DNA from: Candidatus Curtissbacteria bacterium
Lineage (GTDB): Bacteria > Patescibacteriota > Microgenomatia > Curtissbacterales > GWA2-41-24
Assembly: GCA_030688205.1 (NCBI GenBank)
Contig: JAUYIQ010000012.1
Coordinates: 1-38,807 of the forward strand
DNA length: 38,807 nt
Direction of reading: 5' to 3'
The translations under genes were made by a program, and so were the position numbers. Position 1 is the first letter of the stretch, and every line of letters begins with the position of its first letter. Under the pieces are notes generated by a model, which saw only the letters and a list, made by a program, of their open reading frames with translations, was not told where the DNA came from and ran no database searches. This document shows positions 369 through 30,431 of the stretch, piece by piece.

Positions 369-977
369 TTAGTATTCCGATTCCCGCTTATCGCTTCTCT
401 CTTCCAATACATACTTATAACTAAACCACCAGAAAAAAGCCAGCCAAAACATGCTCAAAAGTACTGCACCGTATTTATGGGTTAAATCGGTAGCAACTCC
501 ACCGAAATAATAAAGTATTGCCAGAATTAAAGCTATCCTGATTACGTTGAAGATAAAGGTTCCCAAAAAGCCGATAAGAAGGACTTCTATTTTGGAAAAC
601 CTCGTATATTTCTTAGAAAATCCTCCCCATAAGCTTATCCCTAAAATTACAAAAGACTGCCAGCCGATACAATTCCACGAAATATAAGTCTTCAAACTTT
701 GGCCGTTTTTAATAACCTCAACCGTCCCCTCAAGAATCGGCACTCCCGCAAGCTTCAAAAGTGTTCCTACAAGAACCTCCTCATACGGAACAAGGACATT
801 CTCAATCACCCTGAAAAAGAACGTTTGTTCTGCAATCTTTGCAAACAGGTTGTCCAAAGTCAGAAACAAGGGCAGGAATAAAAAGATGAAAAACAGCGGT
901 AATACAAGGTGGATTACCAGCCATCGTGATACTTCGTAAATTCTAGGATTTATTGTTGAACTGTAAATTTGCTTCAT
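369..977 (-). CDS. Exosortase/archaeosortase-family membrane protein (paralog 1)
   Basis: 202-aa ORF that is hydrophobic throughout, with about 6 predicted TM helices. Motifs are VPYEE, ISWNCIGWQS (Cys), FNVIRIALIL (Arg), THKYGAVLL (His) and FWWFSYKYVLEE. The Cys...Arg...His order matches the conserved core described for exosortases/archaeosortases. It is a clear paralog of 22929-23471 and 29182-29763. Confidence 0.7.
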   Translation of the reverse strand: MKQIYSSTINPRIYEVSRWLVIHLVLPLFFIFLFLPLFLTLDNLFAKIAEQTFFFRVIENVLVPYEEVLVGTLLKLAGVPILEGTVEVIKNGQSLKTYISWNCIGWQSFVILGISLWGGFSKKYTRFSKIEVLLIGFLGTFIFNVIRIALILAILYYFGGVATDLTHKYGAVLLSMFWLAFFWWFSYKYVLEERSDKRESEY

Positions 978-2118: not shown

Positions 2119-2139
2119 ATCCCCATTTGAAAATTGTCC

Positions 2140-4740
2140 TCATCCCCCGTTTTTTCTCCGCCTCCTTCCCAAAACCTTTCTTAATCGGTTAAACCCAAGA
2201 ATTCTCAAAAACCACATTGAAAATTGAAAATTGCTTGCCCTCCAAAACTTTAGTGAAGGAGGGAAAATTGAAAGTGTTCCCTGCCGAATACTTCTAATAA
2301 TCTTCGGAATCCCAAACGCAAACGGAGCCAGAAGAATCGAATATTCGGGAACTGGATCTCCGCCCTCGGTGTAGGTAGCGTAGATGGAGTATTTATTGGT
2401 CGTATGGGTGAAGGTAGCTGGAGATGTTAAATAGGCATTAGCTTGGGAATGCCCCTGGTCTGCACTTCCAGTATCATATTTATAATAGGCATTAACAAAC
2501 TTTGCGTATGCGTGTGCGAGAGCTAAGACGTAATCAACTGCCTCAATAGTTGGTGAAGTAGCAAAAGCGAAATCAACCCAACTATATGAAGTTCCTACAG
2601 ACACTTCATTAGTTGCTCCGTTAGTTATCAATGTTGAATCACTATGAGTATAAATTCCACCTTTAGCATTTCCTGCAGTGAGCCTTTTAGTATAGGCAGT
2701 AATCTTTGTGGCTGTTCCTGCAGCGCCTGTAAAAAGGCTTCCTCTTGTGGCCGCTCCATATGCGTACAGATCAGCTATCTCCTCAGTGCCCCCCGCCGTC
2801 TCGTACCCAAAAGTCGGGTCGACTGTGACGGGGTATTGGGCTTGGGCAAGCCAATTTTGATCGACAGTAACTGTTAATTCTCCCTTAACGGTATCAACAT
2901 TTAAATTTCCCCAGGTCGAATTATTGTTTGCGTCGGTGATTTTCGGCCGGTAAATATGGAGGGCTTTCCCCGTCTTGTAGTTTTTTCCGCCAAGTTGGGA
3001 ATAATCACCGGATTTGCCATCTTTGTAATAAACGGCATACGAGCCGACAACATTTTCCGGCCGGAAGATTGTGATGTGATTTTCTTTATCGCGGCACTCA
3101 GTCAGAGTACATGTTAATTCCGGATCCTTATTCTCCTCATTCAAAGCCGGCTGGTAGAAAAAATCCAAGTTCTTGGAATTAATGTCATAAGCAAAGACAT
3201 TGCTTTCCGGTTTTTCTTTAAGAAGTAAGTCAAACTCAAATTTGCCCGAGCTTCCGTTTTTAGCACTACCCGGCTCAGTGATTTTTTTGAAATAAAGATC
3301 CTGCTTCAGATCTTTCCAACTGATAGCATTGTTTCCTGTTTGAACCACAGCATCGGCACCTACCGGGTAGCTAATCTTCATTGAGGCTTCACCATCCCAG
3401 TTAGAAACAAGTACTTCCGGCTTGAGTTTTTTCGAATCGTTTCCGCCTACTGTAACGTTAGGAATGTCAGGGAAGTTATATGCTGCCTGTACGAGCCAAC
3501 CTGCATTCTTGCTTTCATCAAAAACCAACTTTCCTTCCTTGATGAACTTAATGGGTTCTACCAAATAAAATTGGGGGTAAATATCTTGTGCTTTTAAGAA
3601 GTATGTAAGCTCATGTACTTCTCCCTTCTTCCAATCAACTGTCCAGGTGAGCAGCCTTTGATACCCAACCTCAGTAAAGCCAACAACCGATTCCCTGCCT
3701 TCTACAACGGTTGCCGAATAGCCGGTTGGACTAAAACTTGCAGGCAAGGTTTCTGTGATTTGACCCCTAAAGTCTTGGTTTGCAACTACAGTAAGTTTGA
3801 CATCATAAGGTGAAGGTTGATAAATTCTGGTCGGGTAAGAAGTACGTTCAATATCAAAAGGTACGGATTCTTTAACCTCAAAGTAGCTTGTCGTGCTTCT
3901 TTTTCCTTCTTTTGATTCTACGATCAGGTCAAGTTTGTATAATCCCGTACCTTGAACCTTGAAGACTGCAGTGTAATCCGCGCTGTTTGTAATATTTTGC
4001 GGTCCGCACTTCCCGCTCGGCTTGATCCCCCCGTTTTCTGTGCTTAACTCTTCTCTAACTTGTAACTTGTCGCTTGTAACTTGTAACTTCAACCTGGCAT
4101 CACAAACTGCCTTACCCTGATCGTTTAGTACCCCGAAGCCAAGTTTCGCTTCTTCACCTGGTAAATAGATGCTCTTGTTGGTATTGATTGCAAGTGTTCC
4201 CCATCTGAAATCCTGAGTGGAAACGTAGTTAGCTCCTGTTGCATCCGTCCATTTGGCAGAAAGTGTGTATTTGCCGGGTTTGACTCCGGAAATATTCGAA
4301 AGCGTTACTTTAAATCCGCTGTCTTCACTAGCAATTTCAGGCTTAATATCCAATACTTCATGACCGGCATAATCCAATATAGAAGCTTCAGCTTTGGGTT
4401 CTGCAGCTTCCACCCTGCCCAATGAAAATATCCGGTCAAGCGTACTTACCTTGTTTTCGCTTCTTAGATAAAACTCCGGTTGACTTCCATTTCCAAACGT
4501 GTCGGTAACTGTTTCGATCTTTCCCCAGCTGGCAAGAGAGCCCAGTCTCGGGACCATGTCAAACAAACTCTCGTTAAAACTCAGTGCATTCAAAAGAATC
4601 GTGAATATCAAAAGAAACACCAGAAAACTAAGACCTTTTCGTCCTTTTCTTCTTGGCTGTATCCTCGGCGGATATTCCACCCAGCCGAAAGCCACTTGGT
4701 TTTTTGGTCTCAATCTGTTTCTAAAGAGTAAAATCTTCAT
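2140..4740 (-). CDS. Secreted surface protein with Ig-like/beta-sandwich domains and a PVPE C-terminal sorting signal (cargo 1)
   Basis: The ORF track gives 2140-4899. The likely start is ATG at 4740 (MKILLFRNRL...), which is followed by a signal-anchor helix LSFLVFLLIFTILLNALSF. Upstream codons overlap the HTH gene. Sequence stretches resemble MG/CARDB/DUF11-type sandwiches (FRWGTLAINTNKSIYLPGEEAKL, TWTVDWKKGEVHELTYFLKA). The C-terminus is DPVPE-YSILLAPFAFGIPKII-RSIRQ plus 46 extra residues. Confidence 0.7.
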   Translation of the reverse strand: MKILLFRNRLRPKNQVAFGWVEYPPRIQPRRKGRKGLSFLVFLLIFTILLNALSFNESLFDMVPRLGSLASWGKIETVTDTFGNGSQPEFYLRSENKVSTLDRIFSLGRVEAAEPKAEASILDYAGHEVLDIKPEIASEDSGFKVTLSNISGVKPGKYTLSAKWTDATGANYVSTQDFRWGTLAINTNKSIYLPGEEAKLGFGVLNDQGKAVCDARLKLQVTSDKLQVREELSTENGGIKPSGKCGPQNITNSADYTAVFKVQGTGLYKLDLIVESKEGKRSTTSYFEVKESVPFDIERTSYPTRIYQPSPYDVKLTVVANQDFRGQITETLPASFSPTGYSATVVEGRESVVGFTEVGYQRLLTWTVDWKKGEVHELTYFLKAQDIYPQFYLVEPIKFIKEGKLVFDESKNAGWLVQAAYNFPDIPNVTVGGNDSKKLKPEVLVSNWDGEASMKISYPVGADAVVQTGNNAISWKDLKQDLYFKKITEPGSAKNGSSGKFEFDLLLKEKPESNVFAYDINSKNLDFFYQPALNEENKDPELTCTLTECRDKENHITIFRPENVVGSYAVYYKDGKSGDYSQLGGKNYKTGKALHIYRPKITDANNNSTWGNLNVDTVKGELTVTVDQNWLAQAQYPVTVDPTFGYETAGGTEEIADLYAYGAATRGSLFTGAAGTATKITAYTKRLTAGNAKGGIYTHSDSTLITNGATNEVSVGTSYSWVDFAFATSPTIEAVDYVLALAHAYAKFVNAYYKYDTGSADQGHSQANAYLTSPATFTHTTNKYSIYATYTEGGDPVPEYSILLAPFAFGIPKIIRSIRQGTLSIFPPSLKFWRASNFQFSMWFLRILGFNRLRKVLGRRRRKNGG
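2281..2355 (-). other. PVPE + TM helix + basic cluster sorting signal of cargo 1
   Basis: CCA GTT CCC GAA (PVPE) was verified at 2344-2355 on the minus strand, followed by YSILLAPFAFGIPKII and RSIRQ. Confidence 0.6.
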
Positions 4741-5191
4741 AGCTAACTCCTTTCTGCTCGGCCTCAAAAATGATCTTCGTGGTAAAAAGCGCCGCGCCGA
4801 ACAAAAACGCTTTTTCCTGTTGCCATAGCTGTCGTTTTGAGTGGGTGTTAAGTGCAAGACGACTGAGGATATTGCGGACTCCCTTTTCGGAAATCGCAAA
4901 ACATTCGTTAGTTATCAATTTGGCGAGCTTCTTTGTGGAAAAATGCGGATTTTGCAAAACTTTCTCGAGAACTGTCTGTTCCCTGAATGGGGTCGCTCTT
5001 CGCGGGTGGTTTAAAATTTGCGCTTTTTTGGGTTTTACTGAGGACTTCTTGCCTGTGTAACGCTTATTTAGGCGGTAAAAAATTGTTCTGGAGATTCCGT
5101 AGAGTTTGCACCCCAAAGTTACAGAGAGTTCACCTCTTCGAACTCTTTCTATTAATTCACAGCGTTTCTTCTGGGTTAATTTCGGCGCCAC
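4721..5191 (-). CDS. Small HTH DNA-binding protein resembling the N-terminal domain of IS481/IS630-type transposases, with no catalytic domain
   Basis: 156 aa. Motifs are LGCKLYGISRTIFYRLNKRY (HTH), NHPRR, and a second HTH-like segment STKKLAKLITNECFAISEKGVRNILSRL. Its stop overlaps the cargo-1 start by 20 nt. Confidence 0.55.
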   Translation of the reverse strand: MAPKLTQKKRCELIERVRRGELSVTLGCKLYGISRTIFYRLNKRYTGKKSSVKPKKAQILNHPRRATPFREQTVLEKVLQNPHFSTKKLAKLITNECFAISEKGVRNILSRLALNTHSKRQLWQQEKAFLFGAALFTTKIIFEAEQKGVSYEDFTL

Positions 5192-5378: not shown

Positions 5379-5384
5379 CTCCGC

Positions 5385-8104: not shown

Positions 8105-8107
8105 AAA

Positions 8108-9127
8108 TTAAATACCGTAGCCTTCTTGAAGGTATATTTCCGCCTTTTTGTCTTCCGCAATAAATTGCAGTGGATCATAATCCTTCGCCTCGGGTATGTC
8201 TTTTTCCATTAGCTTGAGCAGCTCTCTCACAAAATCCTCCCGCGGTACAGGATCCAAATTATCCGTCCCTGCCAAAAACCCGTCATATATTTCCTGGGCG
8301 TTTTTTTGATCAACACTATAGTCGGAAATTATCATCGATATAATCTCATTTTTGCGAGTTTCTTCCCTTGCATAAGCAACCCCTTCGGCGAGCGATTCGC
8401 TAATTTTTTGAACAGTCTCCGGATTATTTTTTATTGTTTTTTCAAGAGCAAGCAATCCGACCGGATAATATGAATTTTCGCCTTCCGCCAGATCAAAGAG
8501 AACCCTGAGTCCGTCTTTCTCGAAATTCTCGCTTGATAAGCCCGCAATCAATGGAAGACCCACTACGTCTACACCGCCTTTTAAAAGTATCGGCAGCTTC
8601 CCCTCATAACCTCCTGTCGTAACAAATTCGATGTTATCCAAAGGAATTCCTGCAAGCTTCATAGCCATCACCGTTTCATAGTAATCTTCGCCTCCAAGCC
8701 TGTTAATACCCACCTTTTTTATAGAGGTGATTTCTTTATTGCTTAAAAGATAAAACTTATCTGCCCGAAGTACTGTCGAAATCCACCTTGCTTCCGATCC
8801 CTTAACATCGCTTGCCAAAAACGAAGCAAAAATCTGGACCTGGTAATCGACCTGACCGGAAGCAAGAGCATTAGCGTTACCCCCTATAAGCGCAGAGTCT
8901 TCAACATCAAGTCCGTTTTTGGCAAAAATCCCTTTTTTCTTGGTAACATTCACCGCTAAAGCATGAACCGGAACGGGAGATTTTCCAAGTTTAACTTGAG
9001 TTAATTCTTGAGGTTTTCCTGCCGACTTTGGCAATTTTTTCTCAGAAAGTTTTTGGCCACTGATTACAATAACGGCTAAAATTAAAATTACAATAAACGC
9101 TATTAAATTCTTTTTAACAAATTCCAT
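8108..9127 (-). CDS. ABC substrate-binding protein (NMT1/THI5 - SsuA/TauA-like), membrane anchored, copy A
   Basis: N-terminal helix LIAFIVILILAVIVI followed by a periplasmic-binding-protein-like sequence. Paralog of 16008-17000. Confidence 0.8.
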   Translation of the reverse strand: MEFVKKNLIAFIVILILAVIVISGQKLSEKKLPKSAGKPQELTQVKLGKSPVPVHALAVNVTKKKGIFAKNGLDVEDSALIGGNANALASGQVDYQVQIFASFLASDVKGSEARWISTVLRADKFYLLSNKEITSIKKVGINRLGGEDYYETVMAMKLAGIPLDNIEFVTTGGYEGKLPILLKGGVDVVGLPLIAGLSSENFEKDGLRVLFDLAEGENSYYPVGLLALEKTIKNNPETVQKISESLAEGVAYAREETRKNEIISMIISDYSVDQKNAQEIYDGFLAGTDNLDPVPREDFVRELLKLMEKDIPEAKDYDPLQFIAEDKKAEIYLQEGYGI

Positions 9128-19232: not shown

Positions 19233-21104
19233 TTATTCAATACCAACCACGGGTATTTTTAAGTCTATATATTTTTGGGCAAGGCTTCTGTTTTGTTTTA
19301 AGAAGACTACTACGTCGGGCGCAAAACCGTCTGAAAGCTCCTTTGTCGGGTTTTGTACGTCAACATGTTCAATCCTAACACCAAGTCTCTCATGCCCAAT
19401 AATAGCCCACAAGGGATATTCAAAATCGAAACTTTGCTCCTCTAAAAATAGCCCGACATTTTTGTAGTTATTATCGCGAATAAGCTGGGCTATTTGACGA
19501 TACGGTTCATACAACTGGGGCCTCAAAATAAAGTACTGCTGCTCTCTGCTTTTTTGGAAAAAAGGCTCATTGGAAATTACGGGCTTGGCGATATTGAACA
19601 AAACAAAATAAAAAGACGTCGACAGAATTACCACAAGAAGCAAATTTACTGCCAAAGGCTTTAATTTACCTAGCGAAATTGCAATTGGCACCGACCAGAG
19701 GACAAAAAGAGGCAGATGAAACCTCGAGCTACTGCTTTGCCACCGGAAAACCGCGCTAAAGAGAAAAAACGCAAAAAACGAAGCCAAAAGAAAATATTTT
19801 AAATCCCTATACCCCTTCTTTTTCATCAGCAAAATCACACAAAGAATCAAAAGTAGAAAATGTATCGTATTTGGGGCTTTGTATTCATTTGCGCTGATCT
19901 TGAAAATCACAAACTCCCTGCCTAACCAGTTGAAATTTGGACTATCCAAAGAAACTCCCGCAAATTGATGTAATTTACCAACCGAATCATAAACAATCTT
20001 ATTTATTGGCTTTATAGGTGTAGATAAATGCACACTGATATTTTTAACCGAACCTAAAACAAAAGACTTTGGCCCAACCGGACGGTTAACATAGTCATCT
20101 CTGAGACTGAAAATTGGCAAGCCCGAAAAAGTATAGTTCCGCCAAAAAAAACCTGTATTGACAGAAAATGCAATTACCAGTGTAGCCAAAACGTAAAATA
20201 CGGCTTTTCGATACCCAAACCGTAATAGATAACCCGCAAAAAACCAAAGCATAAAAGGCAGAAAATATACATAAGCAGTATGCTTGGTTAAAAATGCAAG
20301 ACCTAGAGATATTGCAGAAACGAAAAGAAAAATATTTCTCTCTGTTTTAAAAAACGCGATCCCAAAATAAACAAAAGTCCCAAAAAAGAAAGCAAGAATA
20401 TAATCTTCCCCCGTCGACGATGCCTGAAGTATGCCAATTGGAACAGAAAGAGCTATAAAACCGGCAAGAATCTGCGTTTTTAAATCAGCTCTTAAGCGAT
20501 ATGCAATTAGCGTAACCGAAATAAAACTTCCTATGGCAAAAAGCCACTGGACAAGATTTGAATAAATATCGCTGCCCGCAAGAGCAAGAGCGTGCAAAAA
20601 CGCAAAACTCGCCAGTGGCGGCTGGTAAAGCTGCCATGTTATATGGGTTGGATAATACGCAAGGCTTGCGTTCTGAAGCCAATGCATGGGGCGGGCAAGC
20701 CAAAGGCTGGCAGCGTCGATATTATTTGGGGCAGATGTCAGTGACAAAATAAAGGTTGAAACAGCTACAATTAGTAACCCTATTATCGAAATTTTGGCAT
20801 CAGTGTTTTTTTCCCAAAGGATTGTCAAGTTTCCTAAATTGGGTAGAATATTTACTTCTTTAAAAGATTTTTTGACAGAAAAAGCAGTCGCCAAAGTCAT
20901 AAAACTCCAGCAAAAACCAATAGCTTCCGGGGTCAAAAGATGAAAAAAACTCAACACTTCGGTAATTACGACTAAAAGCAGGGAGAAAAGTACGATTGAT
21001 ACCAATAATCTTTCCCGCCAAAGCAAACCTTTGAATTTGCCGGAAATCGCAAGAAAAATTAGGAAGAAAGCAAAAACAGGAAGCAAAATCAGCATCTTAA
21101 GCAC
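19233..21104 (-). CDS. GT-C-like (ArnT/PMT-type) polytopic membrane protein
   Basis: 623 aa with more than 10 hydrophobic helices. QLYQPPLASFAFLHALALAGS resembles the PMT_2/ArnT first-loop region. It is the counterpart of the N-terminal half of 10895-13615. The function call is tentative. Confidence 0.45.
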   Translation of the reverse strand: MLKMLILLPVFAFFLIFLAISGKFKGLLWRERLLVSIVLFSLLLVVITEVLSFFHLLTPEAIGFCWSFMTLATAFSVKKSFKEVNILPNLGNLTILWEKNTDAKISIIGLLIVAVSTFILSLTSAPNNIDAASLWLARPMHWLQNASLAYYPTHITWQLYQPPLASFAFLHALALAGSDIYSNLVQWLFAIGSFISVTLIAYRLRADLKTQILAGFIALSVPIGILQASSTGEDYILAFFFGTFVYFGIAFFKTERNIFLFVSAISLGLAFLTKHTAYVYFLPFMLWFFAGYLLRFGYRKAVFYVLATLVIAFSVNTGFFWRNYTFSGLPIFSLRDDYVNRPVGPKSFVLGSVKNISVHLSTPIKPINKIVYDSVGKLHQFAGVSLDSPNFNWLGREFVIFKISANEYKAPNTIHFLLLILCVILLMKKKGYRDLKYFLLASFFAFFLFSAVFRWQSSSSRFHLPLFVLWSVPIAISLGKLKPLAVNLLLVVILSTSFYFVLFNIAKPVISNEPFFQKSREQQYFILRPQLYEPYRQIAQLIRDNNYKNVGLFLEEQSFDFEYPLWAIIGHERLGVRIEHVDVQNPTKELSDGFAPDVVVFLKQNRSLAQKYIDLKIPVVGIE

Positions 21105-21157: not shown

Positions 21158-22915
21158 ATGAAACTTCACATTAAAATTATCCTGTTTCTCCTTTTCGCCC
21201 TTCTTCTTTTCTTCCTTGTCTCCCCGGAGCACAAATTCTGGCAAAAATACTTTAAGACTCCTGTCAGTCAGGACCCACAGGATAAAGAAAAGATTTTAAT
21301 GAACCCAAATGATATCGCAGACCTTACCCTTAATTTCATCCTGGATAACCAAAAATACAGTTTTAACAAAGGGGAAATTAGCTTGAACGGCCAAAAGATA
21401 AACAACCCGAACGAACGCCAAAAAGCCCGCTCCTTCGTCTTCTTCTATCAAATGACACTCGAAGATCCCCTTTTCACTGCCCCATATTTTGACCTTGAAG
21501 GATTTAAAAAAACAATTGAAATTTTAAAATATGCCCAAGACCAGTACAACGCGGCAATTGGCAAAAACGAACAATTTTTCCCTTTATCCTTTTTACAAAA
21601 AATCCCTGATGTTTACCCTGCTGAAAATGAATTTTTGACAAACCCTACAGATAAAACTGCCCAAAATCTGCTTTCTGTCTATAACCTAACAGCCGAAGCC
21701 TACAAAAATGAAGCCGGTCAATTTGTAAATACAATCAAAACGAATGAAGAAAAAATTCCGGGAACTAATTATGTGGCGATAAACAGTACCACTACCAAAA
21801 AGGTGATTTTTTCCGATCTGGAAAAACTAATTCAAAATTCAGATTTTCTGATTTTAGAAGTAAAAAATAGGCAAAACTGTCTTGAAAAAGCCCTGAACTG
21901 CAAAAGACCCTTTTCACTAATTCAACAACCACAAACTACCCGGTTAATTTCCGAAGATTACGAAAAACCCCTGCCTCTTCCGTCGCTTTTCCCCGGCCTT
22001 CCAGCCAAAAGATACTCTAATCTAAAAGGTCCCTATGCAGTGCCTACCTCCTGCTTCGGCTGGGGAGAAAATTTTACAAAAAAAACCCACCTTTTTTACT
22101 TTCTTACGAGTCAATTCGAAATAATTGAAAGGCAGGATTTGGGCACAATATCTAATTTCAGGATCAAATTGGCAAATAATAATTTTTATAGAAAAGTAGC
22201 AAAAGAAAGCTTCGAAGCGGATTTTCAAACCGATCTCGAGTACACAAACCAAAAGGAAGATAATTTATATGTCTGCCGTGATTCAACTTATCAGGCACAA
22301 GCCACAACCCTAAACTTTTTCCGCGAAAATATCAAAACTAAACTTTTTGAAAAATTCGATTTATCTAAAGTCCCAAAAGATCAGGAGCAGTTTTTCCAAA
22401 ATGCACGTATCTTTGAACAGGAATTTTTCTCAACCCAACCCCCGTCCTGGAAAAATCTGGAAATCTTGTCTTCATATTACGCATACGCAGCCAAAATCAT
22501 GACAGACGAAAGCCTAACCTCCCAAAAGGCAGAGTTTATCAATCGTTACCTTCTGATAAACCGGCAGGAAGGTGACTTTGCAAAGCTAACCAACCACAGC
22601 ATAAAAGGTTTTCTTCTTCTTTCCGCCAGAGAAAAAAATAGACCGGGTACTACCACAAATAACGCCTTTTTCTACTCACAGGTTTACCTCAGCAGAAGCC
22701 TATGGAACGTTCTTTTCTTCCCTTTCTCTCCTTCTTTCTGGCGGAATCCCGAAAATCTCGAATATCTGGAGAAAAGAGAAGTAATAAGCGTTGGGCCTAA
22801 CGGGCCTTATCTCGACACAAAACTTGCCACGGAAAAATTCTCACCCGAGATAATCGAAAGAATGCATTTTGAAACTTGGGAATATAACAAAAGCTTACTG
22901 GAAGAAGAACCTTAA
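21158..22915 (+). CDS. Signal-anchored extracytoplasmic protein of unknown function, homolog of the C-terminal domain of 10895-13615
   Basis: N-terminal helix IILFLLFALLLFFLV. Blocks shared with the 906-aa protein: LEDPLFTAPYFDLEGFKKTIE, VKNRQNCLEKALNCKRP, KGPYAVPTSCFGWGENFTKKTHLFYF, FFPFSPSFWR. Confidence 0.6.
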   Translation: MKLHIKIILFLLFALLLFFLVSPEHKFWQKYFKTPVSQDPQDKEKILMNPNDIADLTLNFILDNQKYSFNKGEISLNGQKINNPNERQKARSFVFFYQMTLEDPLFTAPYFDLEGFKKTIEILKYAQDQYNAAIGKNEQFFPLSFLQKIPDVYPAENEFLTNPTDKTAQNLLSVYNLTAEAYKNEAGQFVNTIKTNEEKIPGTNYVAINSTTTKKVIFSDLEKLIQNSDFLILEVKNRQNCLEKALNCKRPFSLIQQPQTTRLISEDYEKPLPLPSLFPGLPAKRYSNLKGPYAVPTSCFGWGENFTKKTHLFYFLTSQFEIIERQDLGTISNFRIKLANNNFYRKVAKESFEADFQTDLEYTNQKEDNLYVCRDSTYQAQATTLNFFRENIKTKLFEKFDLSKVPKDQEQFFQNARIFEQEFFSTQPPSWKNLEILSSYYAYAAKIMTDESLTSQKAEFINRYLLINRQEGDFAKLTNHSIKGFLLLSAREKNRPGTTTNNAFFYSQVYLSRSLWNVLFFPFSPSFWRNPENLEYLEKREVISVGPNGPYLDTKLATEKFSPEIIERMHFETWEYNKSLLEEEP

Positions 22916-22928: not shown

Positions 22929-23471
22929 TCATTCCTTCCTCTTTTCCTCTAGAACAAACGTATATGCAAACCACCAGAAGGCCAAAAACCAAAGTATCGC
23001 AACGAGAGTCGCCAGGTAATTATGGAAAACGTAGGCCCCGCTCTTACCAAACGAAAGAGCAAACAAAACCACAATAATGATCCTAAAAATGTTAATTAAA
23101 AATGTGCCCAACAAACCGATCAAAACCGTTTCGATCCGGGAAATTGGCGTAAATTTTCCCGAAAGTCCGGTCGCAAAAGTCAAAATAAGAAGCACTACCG
23201 ACTGCCAGCCCAAACAGTTCCAGGAGATATAAATTGATGCGTTTTGAGATATTAACCCTGTCTTTGTTATAGTCATGTCAATACCAATCAAATTCAAGAA
23301 TCCCCAAACAAGTTTCGTCTCATAAGGCACCACGTAATTTTGGATGATTTTATAAAGGTATAAATGCTCAATCACCTTCGTCATCGCCTCAGACAACGTC
23401 ATCACAGCGGGAAAAATCAACAAAATAACCGCAGCGAAGATGAAGATATTGCTGAAAACAGATGTTTTCAT
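22929..23471 (-). CDS. Exosortase/archaeosortase-family membrane protein (paralog 2)
   Basis: Motifs VPYET, ISWNCLGWQS, INIFRIIIVV, FHNYLATLV and FWWFAYTFVLEEK. The likely start MKTSVF at 23471 overlaps the cargo-2 stop as ATGA (23468-23471). The track start at 23528 would add 19 non-hydrophobic residues. Confidence 0.7.
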   Translation of the reverse strand: MKTSVFSNIFIFAAVILLIFPAVMTLSEAMTKVIEHLYLYKIIQNYVVPYETKLVWGFLNLIGIDMTITKTGLISQNASIYISWNCLGWQSVVLLILTFATGLSGKFTPISRIETVLIGLLGTFLINIFRIIIVVLFALSFGKSGAYVFHNYLATLVAILWFLAFWWFAYTFVLEEKRKE

Positions 23472-25513
23472 ACTGGTAACACCATAACAATCTTTTCTTT
23501 GTTCTTCAGTCTGCGTTGCTTTATCCATTCAACCAGCTTCGGCACAAATATCAAGGCCGGCGCGGCAAAAAGTAGAGCCTCCGGCACGGGCATACTGGAA
23601 ATCTGAATAATCAGCCAGGCGGAAGCAAGATTAACGGTATTAGGACTTGTTACGTTTTTCTGCGAATCCATTCTTTTTGAAGAAGCCGGCATATTTGCTG
23701 TAATATCACCGCTTCTTTGCCGAACATAAGTCGTACTGGCTGTCGAAACTTCCGAGCCTGTAATTGCAGATGAATCAGTATCATTTTTAAGTCGTGAATA
23801 CCCGGTACCGGCAGAAGTTTTTATCGTAGATTCAAAAAAGTAAGCCTTAGTCCCCCCGAAATTAGCGGGGACAAAAGTATTATCATAAACATCATCACCA
23901 TATATCCCGGCACATGCACACGAAACATTACTATTAGCATATTGTTGCACTGTCTCCAAATCCGTCACCCCGTTTGTCCCATCAGACTGGTTCAAAACTA
24001 TTTTTGCGTTGGAAATACTTCCGGAACACCCTCCTCCGTTACCATCGGTACATTTAACCCTTACAATATAGTTGTCATCATTGGTCGTATCCCAGTCGGC
24101 GTCCCCGTCAACGTTAGTCCCCGTCTTCAGGGTCCAGGTCGTATCGCCAGTATGGGAAACTTCTGCAACACTCGTGCTGTTGGTATTATTGTAAAGTTCC
24201 GCATGGACAGTATCCCCCGCACTGGCAATTTTTAAGGTTGCCTGGAATTCTACATCACCCGGAGAAGTAACGGGCGAAGGGGTAAAAACGCTGTCGTTAT
24301 ACTGGTAGATTTTGTAATGGGTCAAAGCAGAGTAAGTAGTATTTGTAAAAGCCGTTTGGTTATTCCCCACCTCAACTTGCGTCTGGGTATCTGTTATCCA
24401 ACCGCCTGACGACTGCACAACTTTCAGCCTGGCTGCCTTTATCTGGGCTGTACCCGAAGCATTATCGGTTTTTATCTGAACTGTATAATCCTTATCATCC
24501 AAAAACTGGGCATCTGCGGTAACGTCAACTGTCTGAAGGGCATAACCACAGTTATTGATAAGGTAAGTAACAGAAGCTACTTCTACGTCGGGACTAGAAG
24601 TTATTTCCATAAGGGTAGCCGTAGTTGTAACGGCTATCTGATCTTTTCCGGAAGTATACCCCGTATTACAAATCAAAGCCTCGAAAGTAACGGTTGAGAT
24701 ATTGGAAAACTTATCGTCATCCCAATGGATAATCCCCAATGAATAATCTGTGGGCGCCAGAGTCGTACTCGCTGTCGTGTACTCCTGATCAATCATATTT
24801 ATCTGCTGCTCGAGACTTAAAGTCATGTCTATTTGAATAACCAGCCAGGCAACATTGGTTTTTGCGGTGTTTCCAGTTAGAGCTTTATGTTCAACATCAA
24901 GGGTTTTCGAGGTTGTCGGCATGGAAAGAGCTGAACTTCTCCTCCGGGCATCCGTGGACGCTCCGGGAATGTTGATTTCCCCATTAGTGATATCAGCAGG
25001 AGTCGTCTCGTCCTTCACTTTTATCCAAGCATCAAGAAAATCTGAATCACCGTATATCTCAAAATAATAAGAAACTGTGCGTGGGGTAAAGTTTGCAGGG
25101 TCAAAAAGGTTATTGTAATTTATGCGGGCATAACTTGTATCTGTAGTTTGTATATAAGTGTTGTTATACACCTGCGTCGTTTCCAGTTTTGAAACGCCCG
25201 AGGCCGAACTCTGCTCCAAAATAATTTTGGCATTGGCAATTTTGGCGGTATTGGCAGAAGCTTTAATGCAAACAAAATAATTTCTCCCCGCAGTCGGCGT
25301 AAACGAATTACTCCTTACACGCGTGTATGTGGAATTTGTGGTTGATACTTCGCTATCTATTAGCGTACTGCACGAGGAGAATGCAAGAACAGCGTAAGCA
25401 GTTGACCCTGCATTACTGTTTGATATTGTAGCTTCAAAATAAACTGTAGGTGCCGGAGACCAAAAGTGAAGACGAAGCCGCACTGCAGGTTGTGGAAGTA
25501 GCAGTGGTATCAA
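23468..25513 (-). CDS. Repeat-module surface protein with a PVPE C-terminal sorting signal (cargo 2); probably the frame-shifted continuation of the upstream GT2 ORF
   Basis: 681 aa, rich in T/S/N/D. It contains repeated units starting EQQINMID, TQTQVEVGNN and ET.Q.Y.N and ending AWL[VI]IQI. The C-terminus is MPVPE-ALLFAAPALIFVPKLV-EWIKQRRLKNKEK. It has a TTG start, no signal peptide, and overlaps the GT2 ORF by 80 nt. Confidence 0.65.
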   Translation of the reverse strand: MIPLLLPQPAVRLRLHFWSPAPTVYFEATISNSNAGSTAYAVLAFSSCSTLIDSEVSTTNSTYTRVRSNSFTPTAGRNYFVCIKASANTAKIANAKIILEQSSASGVSKLETTQVYNNTYIQTTDTSYARINYNNLFDPANFTPRTVSYYFEIYGDSDFLDAWIKVKDETTPADITNGEINIPGASTDARRRSSALSMPTTSKTLDVEHKALTGNTAKTNVAWLVIQIDMTLSLEQQINMIDQEYTTASTTLAPTDYSLGIIHWDDDKFSNISTVTFEALICNTGYTSGKDQIAVTTTATLMEITSSPDVEVASVTYLINNCGYALQTVDVTADAQFLDDKDYTVQIKTDNASGTAQIKAARLKVVQSSGGWITDTQTQVEVGNNQTAFTNTTYSALTHYKIYQYNDSVFTPSPVTSPGDVEFQATLKIASAGDTVHAELYNNTNSTSVAEVSHTGDTTWTLKTGTNVDGDADWDTTNDDNYIVRVKCTDGNGGGCSGSISNAKIVLNQSDGTNGVTDLETVQQYANSNVSCACAGIYGDDVYDNTFVPANFGGTKAYFFESTIKTSAGTGYSRLKNDTDSSAITGSEVSTASTTYVRQRSGDITANMPASSKRMDSQKNVTSPNTVNLASAWLIIQISSMPVPEALLFAAPALIFVPKLVEWIKQRRLKNKEKIVMVLPV
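23471..23590 (-). other. PVPE + TM helix + basic cluster sorting signal of cargo 2
   Basis: CCC GTG CCG GAG (PVPE) was verified at 23579-23590 on the minus strand, followed by a hydrophobic helix and QRRLKNKEK. Confidence 0.6.
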
Positions 25514-27737
25514 AGCAATAATCTTTTTGATCGTCCAAAACTATGTAACTGGTATCAGTTTTGGTATTTTGGTCTCCCACCTCAATTTGTGTCTGGGTAT
25601 TAGTAAAGCTTGTTGCAGATTGCAAAATTATCACTCTCGCTGCTCTCACAGCCACATTTGCACCGACAGATGAAACAAAAACCTCACCTGTTGGGTAACT
25701 GCCGATGGCCGAAGTCCTAAATCTTGTAGCTGTTGTTGTACTGGCTGTGATGGTAATAGTAGTACTTGTATCGGCACTTCCCGAACCGCAGGCCGGCGAC
25801 CCACCGTTACCGCCTTTGGAAAAAGTTACGGTTTGGTCAGACCCGGCGGAATTTGTAGCCACTACTTCAAAATAATAGGTGCCGCCGGAAAATTTGGAGG
25901 TATCTACACATACAATTCCTACCGGTGCTGTCCCCGCCGCAGCTTCCTCATCAACTATATTAATCTGCTGCTCGACTTTCCGACTCCCTGCAGCAGCACT
26001 GGCATTCGGCACAAAAAATGCCAGATAATTTAGCAAAATCACAACTGTCAAAAGCCCCGCCAGAACCGATTTTGAGACAAACCGGAAATGCCTTCTGCGA
26101 CCCTCTATCTCCCTCCCCACAAGCGGCCTGTATGCAGAGGCAAAAGCGAAGGTACGCGGATTCAACTGATTAAAAGCTGATTTAGCCGAGTCGGCATAAT
26201 CGGCTGAAATCGGTTTACCCTGAGCATCGAAGGGCGGAATCGGCGAGCCACCGACCAGACGGCCGAAAAACTTTCCGAATCCTGTCCTTTCAGCAACGTC
26301 TGTAACTATTCCGGACTTTGGCGTTCTGAACCAAGGACCTTCATGAGGCTCCAGGAAACCTTTGATAGCAGCATAAGCCTGAAACGGCACGACTATATAT
26401 GAGATTAATATAAAAGATACTATTCCGGCATAGTCACGTTCGTCTGACTCCTCAAGAAAAAGCCCGACTATATTCATCAGAGGAAGCGCAAAAAGGTTGG
26501 TAAATACCAGTGACCAGCCAAAAGCTGCAGTCCAGAACGGCAGGCGGGCTCCCATCAAAGCTTCGGAAATGAACCACGCAAATGTACCGACAACAAAGAA
26601 AGCCGCCTGCAGATAGTAAAAAGCAAAATAAATAAACTCCATCTTCTCACTCAGTGTCATATTGGGAGATTTCATAATCCGGGGAAACATAACCTTGACG
26701 TTGTAGGAAGAACCTTCTGCCCAGCGCATACGCTGGCGGATTAAACGCTTAACGGTTGCCACTGCTTCGGCAGGCGCCTGAATATAAGGAGTAAACAGAA
26801 CCTTATACCCTGCCTCATAGAGACGAAGTGTAAGTTCAAAATCTTCGGTGATGGAAGTTCCCCAGCCGAATTTCCGAAGTACATCTGCACGAATCGCATA
26901 TACGCTTCCGGCAATTTGCTTCAAACCTCCATAAATCTGCTCGCTCGAGCGCTCAATAACGTAAGAACCCGCATATTCCGTACGCACTCCCCTTGTAACC
27001 CACGTCTGGGATTTATTCAGTACGTGCCACTGGTAACCCTGAACGGCAACGATGTTGCTTACTGCAGACCGCTTACCGCTTACCGCTAACTGCTCATTAC
27101 TGTCTGCTGTTTGCTGTAAGCCATCAGCATTTAGAACTTGAAACGTCTTCACAAACTGCTCGACGGTATCAGGATAAGGCACGAAGTCTGCATCCATAAC
27201 CACGATGTACCACGCTCTTCCGGAACTTCTCTCAAGCGCCTTGTGCAAAGCTGCCCCTTTGTAACCTGAACGCGAAAAGCGGTGAATAAGCTTAACTGTC
27301 GGAGCGTTAGTCTTTGTAAAGATGAAGTATTCAAGTTCAGGTTCCAGATTTCGGGTTTCAGATTCCTGTTTACCAATTTCTGGCACCTGATACCCGGTAC
27401 CCGGAACCTGAATCGTCCACCCACCATCCAAAAGCGTCTTTTTTGCTATCTCAGTCGTCTCATCATTGGAATCGTCGGCAATAATTACCTCGTAATTAGC
27501 AAACTGCTTACCGCTTACTGCATTCAGCTGTAAGCTGTCTACAAACCAGTTCTGCGACGTACATGCACGAATCAGCCTTTCAACAACCCGCTTCTCGTTA
27601 TAAAGAGCAACGTGGATGGAAACAAATGGTTTGGGTTCAATAATCTGAACCTTCTCCATGTTCATCAGAAGATGGTTAGGCTGAGACTTATCTCTGTTTG
27701 GCGAAATAACATTCTCAATAAACTTTTTTATACTCAT
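25434..27737 (-). CDS. Processive family-2 glycosyltransferase (cellulose/chitin/PNAG-synthase-like) with TM region and extracytoplasmic C-terminal repeat units
   Basis: Motifs VSIHVALYNEKRVVERL, IIADDSNDETT, GYKGAALHKAL, VVMDADFVP and QRMRWAEGS (QxxRW), followed by several TM helices. After the last helix, VEQQINIVDEE... and TQTQIEVGDQ... are homologous to cargo-2 units. Its ATG overlaps the upstream stop as ATGA (27734-27737). Confidence 0.85.
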   Translation of the reverse strand: MSIKKFIENVISPNRDKSQPNHLLMNMEKVQIIEPKPFVSIHVALYNEKRVVERLIRACTSQNWFVDSLQLNAVSGKQFANYEVIIADDSNDETTEIAKKTLLDGGWTIQVPGTGYQVPEIGKQESETRNLEPELEYFIFTKTNAPTVKLIHRFSRSGYKGAALHKALERSSGRAWYIVVMDADFVPYPDTVEQFVKTFQVLNADGLQQTADSNEQLAVSGKRSAVSNIVAVQGYQWHVLNKSQTWVTRGVRTEYAGSYVIERSSEQIYGGLKQIAGSVYAIRADVLRKFGWGTSITEDFELTLRLYEAGYKVLFTPYIQAPAEAVATVKRLIRQRMRWAEGSSYNVKVMFPRIMKSPNMTLSEKMEFIYFAFYYLQAAFFVVGTFAWFISEALMGARLPFWTAAFGWSLVFTNLFALPLMNIVGLFLEESDERDYAGIVSFILISYIVVPFQAYAAIKGFLEPHEGPWFRTPKSGIVTDVAERTGFGKFFGRLVGGSPIPPFDAQGKPISADYADSAKSAFNQLNPRTFAFASAYRPLVGREIEGRRRHFRFVSKSVLAGLLTVVILLNYLAFFVPNASAAAGSRKVEQQINIVDEEAAAGTAPVGIVCVDTSKFSGGTYYFEVVATNSAGSDQTVTFSKGGNGGSPACGSGSADTSTTITITASTTTATRFRTSAIGSYPTGEVFVSSVGANVAVRAARVIILQSATSFTNTQTQIEVGDQNTKTDTSYIVLDDQKDYCFDTTATSTTCSAASSSLLVSGTYSLF

Positions 27738-28672
27738 GCCCTACCTCCACTTTGTGCCACTCGCAAAACCATAAAAATACTTATGTAGTACTTCATGCTG
27801 AAGATAAAGAAAAATAGTCCAAAGAAAAGAGCAATAGAAGCAAAAGCTAAGCCAACCACAGATGTACCAGCTGAAGCCGAAGAAACCATTCTGAAAAAGA
27901 AGAAGGTTACAAGAAAAGGAAGAGACAAAATGGACAAAGCAGACAAACCGCGGCGAGGGTCAGTTACTATTAGCTTCGGGACAGAAGCAAAAGGCGCAAA
28001 CAAATCCCGCCACCTGTATACAGGCATTTCGGGCTGATACAGCGGAGCGACTTGGACAAAAGGCTCAACAAAAAAGGCTCCAACATGCAGCAACCTGCGG
28101 GCAAGCGTATTGAGGTTCTCACGCGACAGTAGATTTTGAATCCCGTGATGCCCGACACTGCCCCTTAACCTCTCGTGGAGACTCTTAACAGACAGGTTGG
28201 GATTGGCAAAAACCTCATCAATCACCAATCTTTCTTGATCTTTTGAAAGGGCGTTATAATGCAAACTTCCCTTTAGACGCTTACTGGCAAGGCCACCTTT
28301 ACCTTCCGCTTTATATCTTTTAAGCCACTTGTAACAAGTTTTTCTGGAAATACCGGCTTCCCTGCAAAGTTCTGCTATGCTTCCGTGACCCGCAAGTACC
28401 TTATTAACAAGAAGTGACTTGTCTCGAATGTTTAGGGCTTTAATCGACCTTCGGTCGCATTTGAATCTTTTATCTCTAAGCTTACTAGCAAGCAAATGCG
28501 GTGCAGCATCCTTATATATAGCAAGCCATTTATAAAAAGTTTTTCGGGAGATTCCAGCCTCACGGCACAATCTGGCTATTTTTCCGCCGGACCGGGCTTT
28601 TTTTATTAATGTTAATTTAGCCTCGGAAGAAAAATATGCCACAATTAAAGTGTTACCTTTATCGGGTATCAT
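27734..28672 (-). CDS. Membrane-tethered protein with tandem IS481-like HTH domains (candidate regulator), no transposase core
   Basis: Motifs ARLCREAGISRKTFYKWLAIYKD and AELCREAGISRKTCYKWLKRYKAEGKGGLASKR, plus a third HTH-like segment LSVKSLHERLRGSVGHHGIQNLLSR. The C-terminal ~90 aa are hydrophobic (LSILSLPFLVTFFFF, VVGLAFASIALFFGLFFFIF). ATG at 28672; the track uses TTG at 28678. Confidence 0.55.
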   Translation of the reverse strand: MIPDKGNTLIVAYFSSEAKLTLIKKARSGGKIARLCREAGISRKTFYKWLAIYKDAAPHLLASKLRDKRFKCDRRSIKALNIRDKSLLVNKVLAGHGSIAELCREAGISRKTCYKWLKRYKAEGKGGLASKRLKGSLHYNALSKDQERLVIDEVFANPNLSVKSLHERLRGSVGHHGIQNLLSRENLNTLARRLLHVGAFFVEPFVQVAPLYQPEMPVYRWRDLFAPFASVPKLIVTDPRRGLSALSILSLPFLVTFFFFRMVSSASAGTSVVGLAFASIALFFGLFFFIFSMKYYISIFMVLRVAQSGGRA

Positions 28673-29181
28673 AGTCAAATTTTTCTGGGGCTATTAAAAC
28701 AATAGGCCTATATAGTAAAAATGAGGCTAAAAGAGCATTAATTTTTATGCAACTATAAGTAACAAAACATACTACTATAAGATTAATATAATTAATTATA
28801 GGATGATAATTATTAATGGCTTGTCCTAATGGGCTAAACGTAAGACCTGTTTATCTCGCAGCCTATTAGCTGAATTAGCAAAATTGGTCATATCCCAAGG
28901 AGTAATGTACTCAAAAAACGCTTTAAAACCTCTTTTACAGCCTCTTGGTGGCTAATGAGAAAAAAATTGAAGATTCCTCTAGATCTATCTAGATTTTTTC
29001 ACAACTTATTGACTAAATATTTCACAGATATAATCTCATAACAAGACTCTGTAATAATCACTGATTAGCACAAATAAGATGAACATGTGCTTACTTAATC
29101 AATATATATCTTTTTATAATTTACTATAATTTGTAGAATCAGACACCAATTTCCGATACGGTCCTCTCTAACACTGTAGGC

Positions 29182-29763
29182 CTACAGCGATTTTTCCTCT
29201 AACACAAAACCATAAGCAAACCACCAGAAGAAAAACAGCCAGCCAATCACAGCTAAAAGTGAACCATAGTCGTGAACAATCGTCGCCGGCAGTTGACCAA
29301 AGTTGTAAGCCACAAAAATAACCAGCACAATTCTTAAAATATTGACCCAAAAAGTCCCCAGAGCGCCGATTAAAAAGGCCTTGAATTTGGATAAATTCGT
29401 ATATTTATTTCCCTGCAAACCAATGAATGCCGTGATGGCAAAGAAAAGAATTGATTGCCAGCCAATGCAGTTCCAGATAATCTCGGCAATAAAAGGTTGA
29501 TTATTCCCCAAAACAACATATTCACGGGTCACCGCCACCTCAACTCCCAAAAGCGCCAAAATCACTGCCGTCAGCCTCACTTCAAAAGGTACAACATACT
29601 CGCGAATCAAGTAGTAGCCTTTAAGGTTAATTACAATCCTCGTCAAAATGTCATTGAAAGTCGCCATTAGGGGAAAAAACATCAAAATTAGAACCAGAAT
29701 TAGAAAAAGGGTCACAAAGGTATTGCGGGAAACAGAAATTGTTCTAAATTTAGGCGCAATCAT
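29182..29763 (-). CDS. Exosortase/archaeosortase-family membrane protein (paralog 3)
   Basis: Motifs VPFEV, IIWNCIGWQS, VNILRIVLVI, VHDYGSLLA and FWWFAYGFVLEEK. Confidence 0.7.
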   Translation of the reverse strand: MIAPKFRTISVSRNTFVTLFLILVLILMFFPLMATFNDILTRIVINLKGYYLIREYVVPFEVRLTAVILALLGVEVAVTREYVVLGNNQPFIAEIIWNCIGWQSILFFAITAFIGLQGNKYTNLSKFKAFLIGALGTFWVNILRIVLVIFVAYNFGQLPATIVHDYGSLLAVIGWLFFFWWFAYGFVLEEKSL

Positions 29764-29765
29764 GA

Positions 29766-30431
29766 TTAAAAATTATCAGAGCTTACCATATCTTTTACCG
29801 GCCCCATAAAAGTATAACCGGTTTCATTTTTTCTGACGTCAACAGAAACGAGAGTAGTGGCTTTCAAAACCCCATCAATATATATCTTTTTACTACCTTT
29901 TCCATCATTTAAATCCCAGGAAACGCTAATACCGTGAGCAGACTCTAAGAAATTTGCGTCCAGTTCTACATCTGCTTCCCTGTGGTCATCTATACCGCCT
30001 GAGTCAAAAATATTAAAATGCACATCTTTTCCCTCTTTAATTAAAATTTGCAAAGCATTATTGTGATTCTCCAGATTAAAATTGCCTAAAAATAAAATAA
30101 GATCGGTGTTTTTTGCCCACGGTTGTGCTGCTAATTTAAAGCTGACAGTCCCCTTTTGAATGTCTATTTGCCCCTCGTTGCGATATAAATAGTTCGGCAA
30201 AGCCACAATATTTTTGAATTGACGAAGATCCAATCCTTTGTGAGGATCATTGCCGCGTAGCCCTTCTGAAGAAGCACCCTGCGGTTGTTGCACCGGCTCA
30301 ACCACCGGCTCAACCGGCTCAACGGAAAATGGTGCCGGCTTGCGATTTCTTAAATAAAAAAACCACACCGCAGCTGCAATTATCAGCAACAGCAAGGCAA
30401 TGACAACAACAAGCTTCCTTAAATTTTTCAT
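29766..30431 (-). CDS. Signal-anchored protein with Pro-rich linker and LamG/ConA-like jelly-roll domain (tentative)
   Basis: TM helix LVVVIALLLLIIAAAVWFFY and linker EPVEPVVEPVQQPQ. GTVSFKL..., LILFLGN and ISVSWDLNDGKGSKKIYIDGVLKA resemble LamG-type motifs. Its ATG overlaps the cargo-3 stop as ATGA (30428-30431). Confidence 0.45.
   Translation of the reverse strand: MKNLRKLVVVIALLLLIIAAAVWFFYLRNRKPAPFSVEPVEPVVEPVQQPQGASSEGLRGNDPHKGLDLRQFKNIVALPNYLYRNEGQIDIQKGTVSFKLAAQPWAKNTDLILFLGNFNLENHNNALQILIKEGKDVHFNIFDSGGIDDHREADVELDANFLESAHGISVSWDLNDGKGSKKIYIDGVLKATTLVSVDVRKNETGYTFMGPVKDMVSSDNF

Follow-up and report, generated by a model that had tools for sequence, protein, structure and literature searches.

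The 38,807-nt contig JAUYIQ010000012.1 of a Candidatus Curtissbacteria bacterium (here called the window, meaning the whole stretch of DNA that was analysed) carries side by side an open reading frame (ORF) for a family-2 glycosyltransferase (GT2) and an ORF for a repetitive surface protein, cargo 2, which ends in a C-terminal sorting signal and is followed by the gene of a sortase homolog. In this study, we conclude that the two ORFs are very probably one ancestral gene interrupted by a 1-nt insertion. An earlier reading of the window, made from its letters alone (the sequence-only reading), had suspected that GT2 and cargo 2 form one polypeptide of ~1,400 aa; relatives which carry GT2, transmembrane (TM) region, surface domain and sorting signal in a single ORF bear this out. 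All genes of the locus lie on the minus strand, and coordinates refer to the whole window.

As encoded, the 767 aa of the GT2 ORF (27737..25434) cover a family-2 glycosyltransferase of the processive type with TM helices, followed by repeat unit a, by the initial third of unit b and by an out-of-frame tail, after which comes a TGA stop at 25436-25434. The frame of cargo 2, +1 relative to that of the GT2, is open from 25540 and ends at 23468; ORF analysis thus finds both frames open over 25434..25540, at the very positions where the sequence-only reading had placed the stop and the second opening. The T4 run which it had pointed out (tca ctt ttg versus cac ttt tgg) lies at 25465-25462. Near the top of the cargo-2 frame, the only candidate start codons are TTG 25513 and GTG 25483, the first Met codon following ~200 codons further down; the public gene call of the contig (P0001, 671 aa) begins at the GTG. 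The tail of the GT2 ORF consists of nine out-of-frame codons (LVSGTYSLF), and the Leu just ahead of them, where the extra base lies, is compatible with both frames.

The lesion can be placed by comparison with L001, the locus that encodes protein P0009 and the nearest relative with the same local sequence. The DNA of the two aligns codon for codon on both sides of the break. The window reads tgc agt gcg gct tcg tct tca C-TTT tgg tct ccg gca cct aca gtt tat ttt gaa gct, and L001 reads tgt gat gga aga aca act tca AGA tgg tct cca gcc cca act gtt tat ttt gaa gct. Four nucleotides of the window stand opposite the single L001 codon AGA, and the lesion is therefore one extra base within 25463..25466, that is, within the CTTT between Ser TCA (25469-25467) and Trp TGG (25462-25460), where relatives have one codon. 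Joining the two frames gives the conceptual sequence ...SSSLWSPAPTVYFEATISNSNAGSTAYAVLAFSSCSTLIDSEVSTTNSTYTR or ...SSSFWSPAPTVYFEATISNSNAGSTAYAVLAFSSCSTLIDSEVSTTNSTYTR, with the junction around ...SSSL/FWSPAPTVYFEATISNSNAGSTAYAVLAFSSCSTLIDSEVSTTNSTYTR. Conceptual repair by deletion of one T results in a protein of 1422 aa with repeat module 1 at residues 588-974 and module 2 at residues 975-1379.

The downstream ORF has no ATG start, no Shine-Dalgarno sequence and no signal peptide at its N-terminus (MIPLLLPQPAVRLRLHFW), the last of which had already been remarked upon, and no promoter-like or terminator-like site was found on the minus strand near the break. The two real junctions of the operon contrast with it, both being ATGA overlaps: one at 27737-27734, between the gene of a helix-turn-helix (HTH) protein and the GT2 gene, with GGAGG 6 nt upstream, and one at 23471-23468, between cargo and sortase.

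Evidence that the reading frame once continued across this point comes from the repeats themselves. Module 1 (24815..25976, units a, b and c) is read in two frames across the break, and module 2 (23600..24814) is the intact copy, both being defined by homology and by AlphaFold2 (AF2) models. The motifs which had been described for the three units hold in both, with VEQQINIVD, TQTQIEVGD, ETTQVYNN and AWLVIQI in module 1 and LEQQINMID, TQTQVEVGN, ETVQQYAN and AWLIIQI in module 2. Repaired module 1 and module 2 align end to end with 30% identity (E 5.5e-30, blastp with composition correction). Taken separately, the half in the GT2 frame (module 1 residues 1-156) matches module 2 residues 1-173 with an E-value of 5.6e-9 and the half in the cargo frame (172-382) matches residues 177-405 with 2.3e-22. 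The two matches abut in the intact copy at residues 173/177, as expected from the earlier proposal that unit b continues in the other frame. Chance similarity was rejected, since with 100 shuffles per module half (blastp bits without composition correction) both halves outscored all their shuffles (38.9 bits versus a shuffle maximum of 30.4 for the GT2-frame half, 90.1 versus 27.3 for the cargo-frame half). The C-terminus of the GT2 ORF is thus homologous to the units of cargo 2. Two short DNA repeats are shared by the modules, one of 31 nt (87%) at EQQIN and one of 25 nt (92%) at TQTQ-EVG.

AF2 models were built from a 20-sequence alignment of module copies; both share this alignment and each includes the other copy, so that they are not independent. 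Repaired module 1 was modelled with a mean local confidence (pLDDT) of 84.8 and a global score (pTM) of 0.86, module 2 with 87.6 and 0.88, and both models consist of three consecutive all-beta domains. In strand pattern, the two correspond at 85% of aligned positions (88% within unit b); repaired unit b is thus predicted to fold like its intact copy. A loop (residues 165-168) that is lineage-specific and modelled with low confidence contains the break and separates the unit-b strands 'DYCF' and 'VYFEATISN'. According to the models, the GT2 ORF ends with about three strands of the unit-b sandwich, the remaining strands being encoded on the other ORF. A Foldseek search with the module model gave generic jelly-roll or carbohydrate-binding-module-like matches only, with global TM-scores of ~0.2, and no specific match, for which reason we assign the domains no particular function. 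Ser, Thr and Asn together make up 32% of the surface part versus 16% of the GT2/enzyme part.

Concerning the gene structure in relatives, a protein search with the repaired surface domain yielded 19 homologous proteins, the family alignment picked out 77 loci when run against a single genome for each GTDB species, and a stop-to-stop ORF census was made over 80 loci (L001-L080). A single uninterrupted ORF with GT2, TM region, surface domain and signal was found in P0009/L001 (1417 aa), P0013/L002-L003 (1231 aa), L004, L005, L006 and L009; L025 has all parts in one ORF from the GT2 domain onward, its 5' end lying off the contig. With the exception of L002-L003, a sortase homolog directly follows each uninterrupted fusion. 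P0009 is composed of HTH, two TM helices, GT2, a further TM helix and one a-b-c module, ends in '...SSIPVPEIAILALPAMFALPKIVAWWRANRGRRRE', and reads '...YCFDEDEDSADNAVCDGRTTSRWSPAPTVYFEATI' straight through the point at which the window is broken; on its contig, where the fusion gene occupies 3874-8127, a 191-aa exosortase-like gene (8124-8699) follows with a 4-nt overlap. P0013 consists of GT2, TM helix, module and '...SSLQTPENLFPFLPLLIFLPKIVEYIKKRR'. P0011 and P0006, two fragments that overlap and lie at contig ends, belong to a still longer fusion which ends in '...SAMQIPEMVIWVLPLAIFMPFIVKWYRLRK'.

The census contained 79 near-full GT2 domain ORFs, 65 of which carry the HTH in the same stop-to-stop ORF, and 48 GT2 ORFs with the 3' end inside the locus. 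Sorting-signal tails were detected as x-P-[E/D] followed by a hydrophobic stretch and a K/R cluster. Such a tail is present in 42 of the 48 complete GT2 genes, a same-strand sortase homolog lies within 2 kb downstream in 32, and 30 have both. The six genes without a detected signal comprise three scaffold gaps (L012, L021, L062), a pattern miss with a visible signal (L014), a gene without signal (L069) and a frameshift that looks genuine and lies elsewhere in the gene (L050); L012 had been considered as a second frameshifted example and was rejected, its gap being a run of Ns. Among 158 other long ORFs, the detector flagged 14, of which 11 appeared by eye to be real cargo tails and three spurious. 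The fusion is therefore the norm of the family and the window the exception, and to call a synthase that is itself a sortase substrate unusual, as the sequence-only reading did, understates how common the arrangement is in this large Microgenomates family.

Nearly all of the 77 scan loci come from metagenome-assembled genomes (MAGs) of Microgenomates or other Patescibacteria (Curtiss-, Woese-, Davies-, Chisholm- and Gottesmanbacteria), and a few from Chloroflexi or from contigs labelled as other taxa. Some MAGs are labelled 'uncultured Gammaproteobacteria', 'Dehalococcoidales' or 'Bathyarchaeia' while their genes resemble Microgenomates loci; these labels may be wrong, or the contigs misbinned. 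In many loci (e.g. L006, L009, L067, L005, L061), two or three paralogous HTH-GT2-cargo genes and several sortases stand side by side. Free-standing cargo homologs exist as well (P0002, P0003, P0008, P0012). Source annotations of the homologs are generic, such as 'hypothetical protein' or 'cellulose synthase/PNAG synthase-like glycosyltransferase'.

As to the origin of the extra base, the chances are about even that the insertion is real, very recent and a null allele in the population from which the sample came; an indel that arose in assembly or sequencing is somewhat less probable. The 2 kb downstream of the break are still open, and module, signal and sortase coupling are intact, hence the event must be of very recent date, unless it is not real. 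Elsewhere in the window, where long ORFs lie tightly side by side, no further gene appeared broken, as judged from the ORF layout and from Pfam scans of 14 of the other ORFs, none of which was compared in length with homologs. This argues against a generally error-prone assembly and leaves room for a single error. Misassembly driven by repeats was rejected, as no DNA repeats larger than motif size (31 nt or less) are present. From the sequence as written, no cargo would be exported, and unit b of the synthase would be truncated and unable to fold.

Several points weigh against the reading as one interrupted gene. No same-species copy turned up in any collection searched: at 90% clustering, the GT2 and the cargo of the window are singletons, an exact look-up of the 767-aa GT2 sequence among public assemblies gave no record, a DNA pattern across the break (12 nt + N{2,5} + 12 nt) had no match in metagenome contigs, and a protein-guided metagenome scan with module 1 gave only one marginal 29-residue match. 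Topology and signal-peptidase cleavage, which are discussed below, derive from sequence patterns alone. Moreover, other members of the family are disrupted too, L050 by a frameshift and L049 and L072 by an in-frame TAG, and there may thus be some biological tendency to switch these genes off. Finally, the frame change is +1 and CTT-T formally permits the same P-site slip as in prfB.

The three disrupted relatives differ in detail. In L050 (a Gottesmanbacteria MAG), the frame changes at 7332-7377, between GT2 and cargo, where a T-rich stretch encodes the last TM helix; the P-E signal is retained in the 713-aa ORF downstream, a sortase follows at 9474, and the site differs from that of the window. 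In L049, a TAG at 6913-6915 lies within the GT2 domain at a conserved Tyr/Phe position (EKLEVV*LSPYYLQ). In L072, an in-frame TAG at 640-642, likewise within the GT2 domain, replaces the Phe of ITEDFELTLRLY.

Three other explanations have to be weighed. In prfB, a P-site slip from CUU to UUU brings about programmed +1 frameshifting, and the same could be imagined at CUU-UUG-G of the window: peptidyl-tRNA-Leu would slip from CUU to UUU and the full fusion would be made, perhaps at a regulated ratio to the short synthase. The likeness to prfB lies in the +1 change at CUU-U, and an intact downstream ORF, signal and coupled sortase would suit such a mechanism. The window differs from prfB in lacking an in-frame stop, a Shine-Dalgarno-like stimulator and conservation of the shift in orthologs. 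The A site holds neither a stop nor a rare codon (TTG has a frequency of 17.3 per 1000 codons), GGAGG-like elements are absent upstream, and in-frame CTT-T occurs at 128 other places in the window ORFs. Furthermore, no relative shifts frame here: P0009/L001 reads through, its nearest module-bearing relatives L004, L005, L006 and L025 have GT2 and module in an unbroken ORF, and L050, the only other frameshifted member, breaks elsewhere. We regard programmed frameshifting as improbable. Of the two mechanisms which the sequence-only reading had offered for the split, the 1-nt indel is thus supported by exactly one extra base relative to L001, while the programmed frameshift finds neither a shared break in relatives nor a known stimulator.

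The T run could alternatively act as a phase-variable contingency switch, slipped-strand changes toggling the display of the surface array in the population. Variable surface proteins are a class often switched on and off, about three of roughly 50 family members in MAGs (L050, L049, L072) are disrupted, and at least three paralogous sortase/cargo systems are present in the window, hence the loss of one would be tolerable. Tracts that slip at useful rates are typically of 7 or more nucleotides, and a run of four T falls far short of this; the disruptions in relatives are at different sites and of different kinds, and no relative has a long homopolymer at this position. A switch of this type is therefore about as improbable as programmed frameshifting. 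Hardly probable at all is an evolved, functional two-gene arrangement, in which a short extracellular stub would remain on the synthase and cargo 2 would be made and exported on its own, starting at TTG 25513 or GTG 25483. Fission does occur in the family and even in this operon, HTH and GT2 being separate here and in L002/L003 and fused in most relatives, and free-standing cargo homologs exist. The break, however, lies inside a beta-sandwich and not in a linker, with three unit-b strands on one ORF and the rest on the other. The cargo-2 ORF lacks ATG, Shine-Dalgarno sequence, promoter-like site and signal peptide, whereas the free-standing homologs all have canonical N-terminal signal peptides and the real fission of the operon, between HTH and GT2, has its GGAGG and ATGA overlap. 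We hence retain a single gene interrupted by one inserted nucleotide.

The first gene of the operon (27734..28678) encodes an HTH protein with matches to Pfam HTH_28, HTH_29 and HTH_Tnp_1 and two C-terminal TM-like segments at residues 244-262 and 274-292. HTH and GT2 are on separate ORFs in L002/L003 as well. Fused relatives have two TM helices ahead of the GT2 domain, and in the window the same helices reside on the separate HTH protein; the membrane part of the synthase is thus split between two polypeptides. Upstream of the HTH gene lies an AT-rich gap of 500 nt (28679-29181) with a GC content of ~0.30 versus 0.42 for the window. It holds a weak minus-strand match to sigma-70-like sites at 28697-28668 and is probably where the promoter of the HTH-GT2-cargo-sortase operon lies.

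The GT2 matches Glycos_transf_2 (57.5 bits), Glyco_trans_2_3 (56.7) and Glyco_tranf_2_3 (43.6) of Pfam, all above cut-offs, and contains the catalytic motifs DDS88, DAD182, TED297 and QRMRW335, in columns that are invariant in the family alignment. A family profile matches the BcsA structures 7lby and 4hg6 over the TED/QxxRW region; phmmer with the GT2 alone found nothing among PDB sequences, and only the family profile reached BcsA. Against GT2 equivalog models (PgaC, CelA, NodC, XrtP-associated glycosyltransferase), the best score was 47 bits versus cut-offs of 422-700, and P0013 scored 92 versus 422. Hydropathy analysis shows TM-like segments of the GT2 at residues 410-428, 439-457 and 551-569, in addition to the two on the HTH protein.

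The last TM helix of the synthase (25989..26099) has a signal-peptide-like layout, with RRRHFRF, a hydrophobic core and ASA/AAG, 7 residues before EQQIN (the slash marks the putative cut). AXA-type sites are found at the same place in P0009 (VEA/A), P0011 (TAA/A) and P0013 (AQA/T), 5-7 residues before EQQIN. In the free-standing homologs P0003, P0008, P0012, P0017 and P0019, a true signal peptide forms the N-terminus, and its AXA site is equally far from the motif. In its layout of basic n-region, hydrophobic core and AXA site, the helix thus resembles a signal peptide placed internally; the synthase and surface halves may consequently be separated after translation, and signal peptidase may cut the fusion as a polyprotein.

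The sorting signal lies immediately ahead of the cargo stop (23468..23599) and reads SSMPVPE-ALLFAAPALIFVPKLVEW-IKQRRLKNKEK, i.e. motif, hydrophobic stretch and basic cluster; the same tripartite pattern occurs in the other two cargos of the window. None of the three cargo tails matched a sorting-signal family in NCBIfam, PEP-CTERM included, at E-values up to 10, such searches with short models being of low power. The sortase homolog that follows (22929..23471, 180 aa) begins with an ATG that overlaps the cargo stop (ATGA) and belongs to the exosortase/archaeosortase family by its score against TIGR04178 (33.1 bits, cut-off 23), the signature domain being represented by TIGR04178/PF09721. When the three window sortases were compared with this model, they scored 32.7, 36.6 and 32.0 bits, and the orthologs of L001 and L004 pass the same cut-off. 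The three paralogs have WNC[IL]GWQS, N-x-x-R-I and H-x-Y without variation, and the conserved Cys, Arg and His of these motifs are putatively the catalytic residues proposed from work on ArtA and EpsH. With respect to the named subfamilies of NCBIfam (XrtA-Y, ArtA-F, CrtA-C, thaumarchaeosortase), all three are far below the cut-offs, with scores of 25.6-29.9 versus 100 for artC, 18-27 versus 102.75 for XrtG, 18.6-32 versus 225 for CrtC and 23 versus 160 for XrtY.

The window contains two further sortase systems. One of them (369-5191, minus strand) has no GT2 and is composed of a small HTH protein (5191..4721), a cargo of ~866 aa (4740..2140) that ends in 'GDPVPEYSILLAPFAFGIPKIIRSIR' and a 202-aa sortase (977..369); as it is complete without a synthase, the association of HTH, cargo and sortase holds without the GT2. 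In the other (29182-38806, minus strand), the sortase (29763..29182) is accompanied by an ORF for a membrane protein of 221 aa with a single pass (30431..29766) and by a giant ORF, which stays open over at least 2793 codons up to the end of the contig, contains many Cys-rich repeats of the 'DCK[IV]AYFD' type and has the tail 'FAPVPERTLYLLLATPLAYGLMSRLKKKK'. Its off-contig N-terminus is possibly another HTH-GT2. Next to the operon, a gene at 21104..19233 (minus strand) encodes a 623-aa polytopic protein with weak similarity to PMT_2 and Agl23-like GT-C glycosyltransferases, which could glycosylate the Ser/Thr-rich cargo, and a plus-strand ORF at 21158..22915 encodes 585 aa with a hydrophobic N-terminus and no Pfam match.

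Based on these data, we propose the following outline of the intact system. The polypeptide begins with an HTH domain, presumably cytoplasmic, and two TM helices (in the window on a separate ORF that is coupled in translation), continues with a processive BcsA/PgaC-like GT2 synthase and a final TM helix which would double as internal signal peptide or signal anchor, and extends into a Ser/Thr/Asn-rich array of jelly-roll domains, presumably extracellular and predicted to be six in the window, from two a-b-c modules. The tripartite C-terminal signal, x-P-E, hydrophobic helix and basic tail, closes the protein, and directly after the fusion stands the gene of a dedicated exo/archaeosortase homolog of ~190 aa. 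The last synthase helix would thread the surface array out, and signal peptidase may cut at the AXA site and so free the cargo. The C-terminal helix would hold the P-E motif at the outer face of the membrane, where the adjacent sortase would cut at P-E and re-anchor the new C-terminus. Given the cis arrangement, the synthase's own glycan is an attractive candidate for the acceptor, although this is speculation. In its boldest form, which we consider unlikely, the sortase would do more than lipid-anchor a passenger: it could ligate the P-E-terminated array onto the nascent polysaccharide from the GT2 domain to which the array is fused, or onto the lipid carrier of that polysaccharide. Synthesis, export and protein decoration of a surface glycan would then all fall, in cis, to one gene product, and frame breaks like that of the window would be population-level on/off alleles of the display.

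Parts of this system resemble known ones. Patescibacteria are generally thought to lack an outer membrane. With the PEP-CTERM/exosortase system (EpsH, XrtA; Haft et al. 2006, PMC1569441), the family of the window shares a tripartite tail with P-E motif, hydrophobic helix and basic cluster, a polytopic membrane enzyme with the exo_archaeo signature, and a genomic link to polysaccharide synthesis. A Ser/Thr/Asn bias has been noted for PEP-CTERM proteins (PMC1569441), and the cargo of the window shows the same bias. The enzymes of the window family differ in being of ~190 aa and outside any named Xrt subfamily, and the signal of the window in lacking a second Pro. PEP-CTERM species have been described as bacteria with an outer membrane (PMC1569441). 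The classical substrate rule asks for a signal peptide at the N-terminus and no TM segment before the tail (PMC1569441); the fusion breaks it, as its surface domain follows a multi-pass GT2 and an internal TM helix with AXA replaces the signal peptide.

A single-membrane envelope and a tripartite C-terminal signal are shared with archaeosortase A/PGF-CTERM of Haloferax volcanii and with archaeosortase C/PEF-CTERM, and cleavage with re-anchoring is a likely outcome in both cases; for ArtA, lipid attachment is given in a summary passage of PMC11980579. Archaeosortase C (TIGR03762) is among the best-scoring named subfamilies for the window sortases, yet with 29.9 bits against a cut-off of 100. 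Unlike archaeosortases, the window family has bacterial hosts, a [VIT]-P-E motif instead of PGF or PEF, and substrates fused to a glycosyltransferase.

Among glycosyltransferases, the XrtP-associated enzyme (NF053846) is likewise encoded beside an exosortase-family gene, and the window GT2 matches its model in part; with 47 bits versus a cut-off of 520, it is not a member. XrtG has a neighbouring GT2 as well. In the exosortase-associated glycosyltransferase systems known to us, GT2 and sorted protein are separate proteins, whereas they form one ORF in the family described here. BcsA, PgaC/IcaA and NodC have the same GT-A domain with D, DxD, TED and QxxRW motifs followed by TM helices; unlike them, the window family adds an N-terminal HTH, a C-terminal signal-anchor helix and a large jelly-roll array with a sortase signal. 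No part of the fusion system reaches the cut-off of any named NCBIfam subfamily. In full-text searches of the literature, we found no relevant paper on exo/archaeosortases in Patescibacteria, the candidate phyla radiation (CPR) or Microgenomates and no report of GT2-cargo fusions, and we know of no description of a sorting signal on the synthase polypeptide itself. The conserved HTH-GT2-array-P-E polypeptide with its dedicated mini-sortase appears to be an undescribed variant of exosortase-type sorting that is widespread in Microgenomates.

The frame break itself matters for annotation only: the two ORFs should be described as one disrupted gene, or be corrected if reads show an error. The wider interest lies in the family. 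So far, exosortase/archaeosortase systems have been tied to polysaccharide synthesis only through gene neighbourhood. In dozens of Microgenomates species, a sorting signal is found on the polypeptide of a processive glycan synthase, often together with a DNA-binding domain, and a minimal sortase of 190 aa follows. Such a compact three-part system could make the relationship of enzyme, substrate and glycan directly testable in a heterologous host. If ligation to the glycan in cis were true, exosortase-type enzymes would be joined to exopolysaccharide synthesis by the physical link that has long been sought. The fusion family may represent a major route of surface display in CPR bacteria, whose envelopes are poorly understood.

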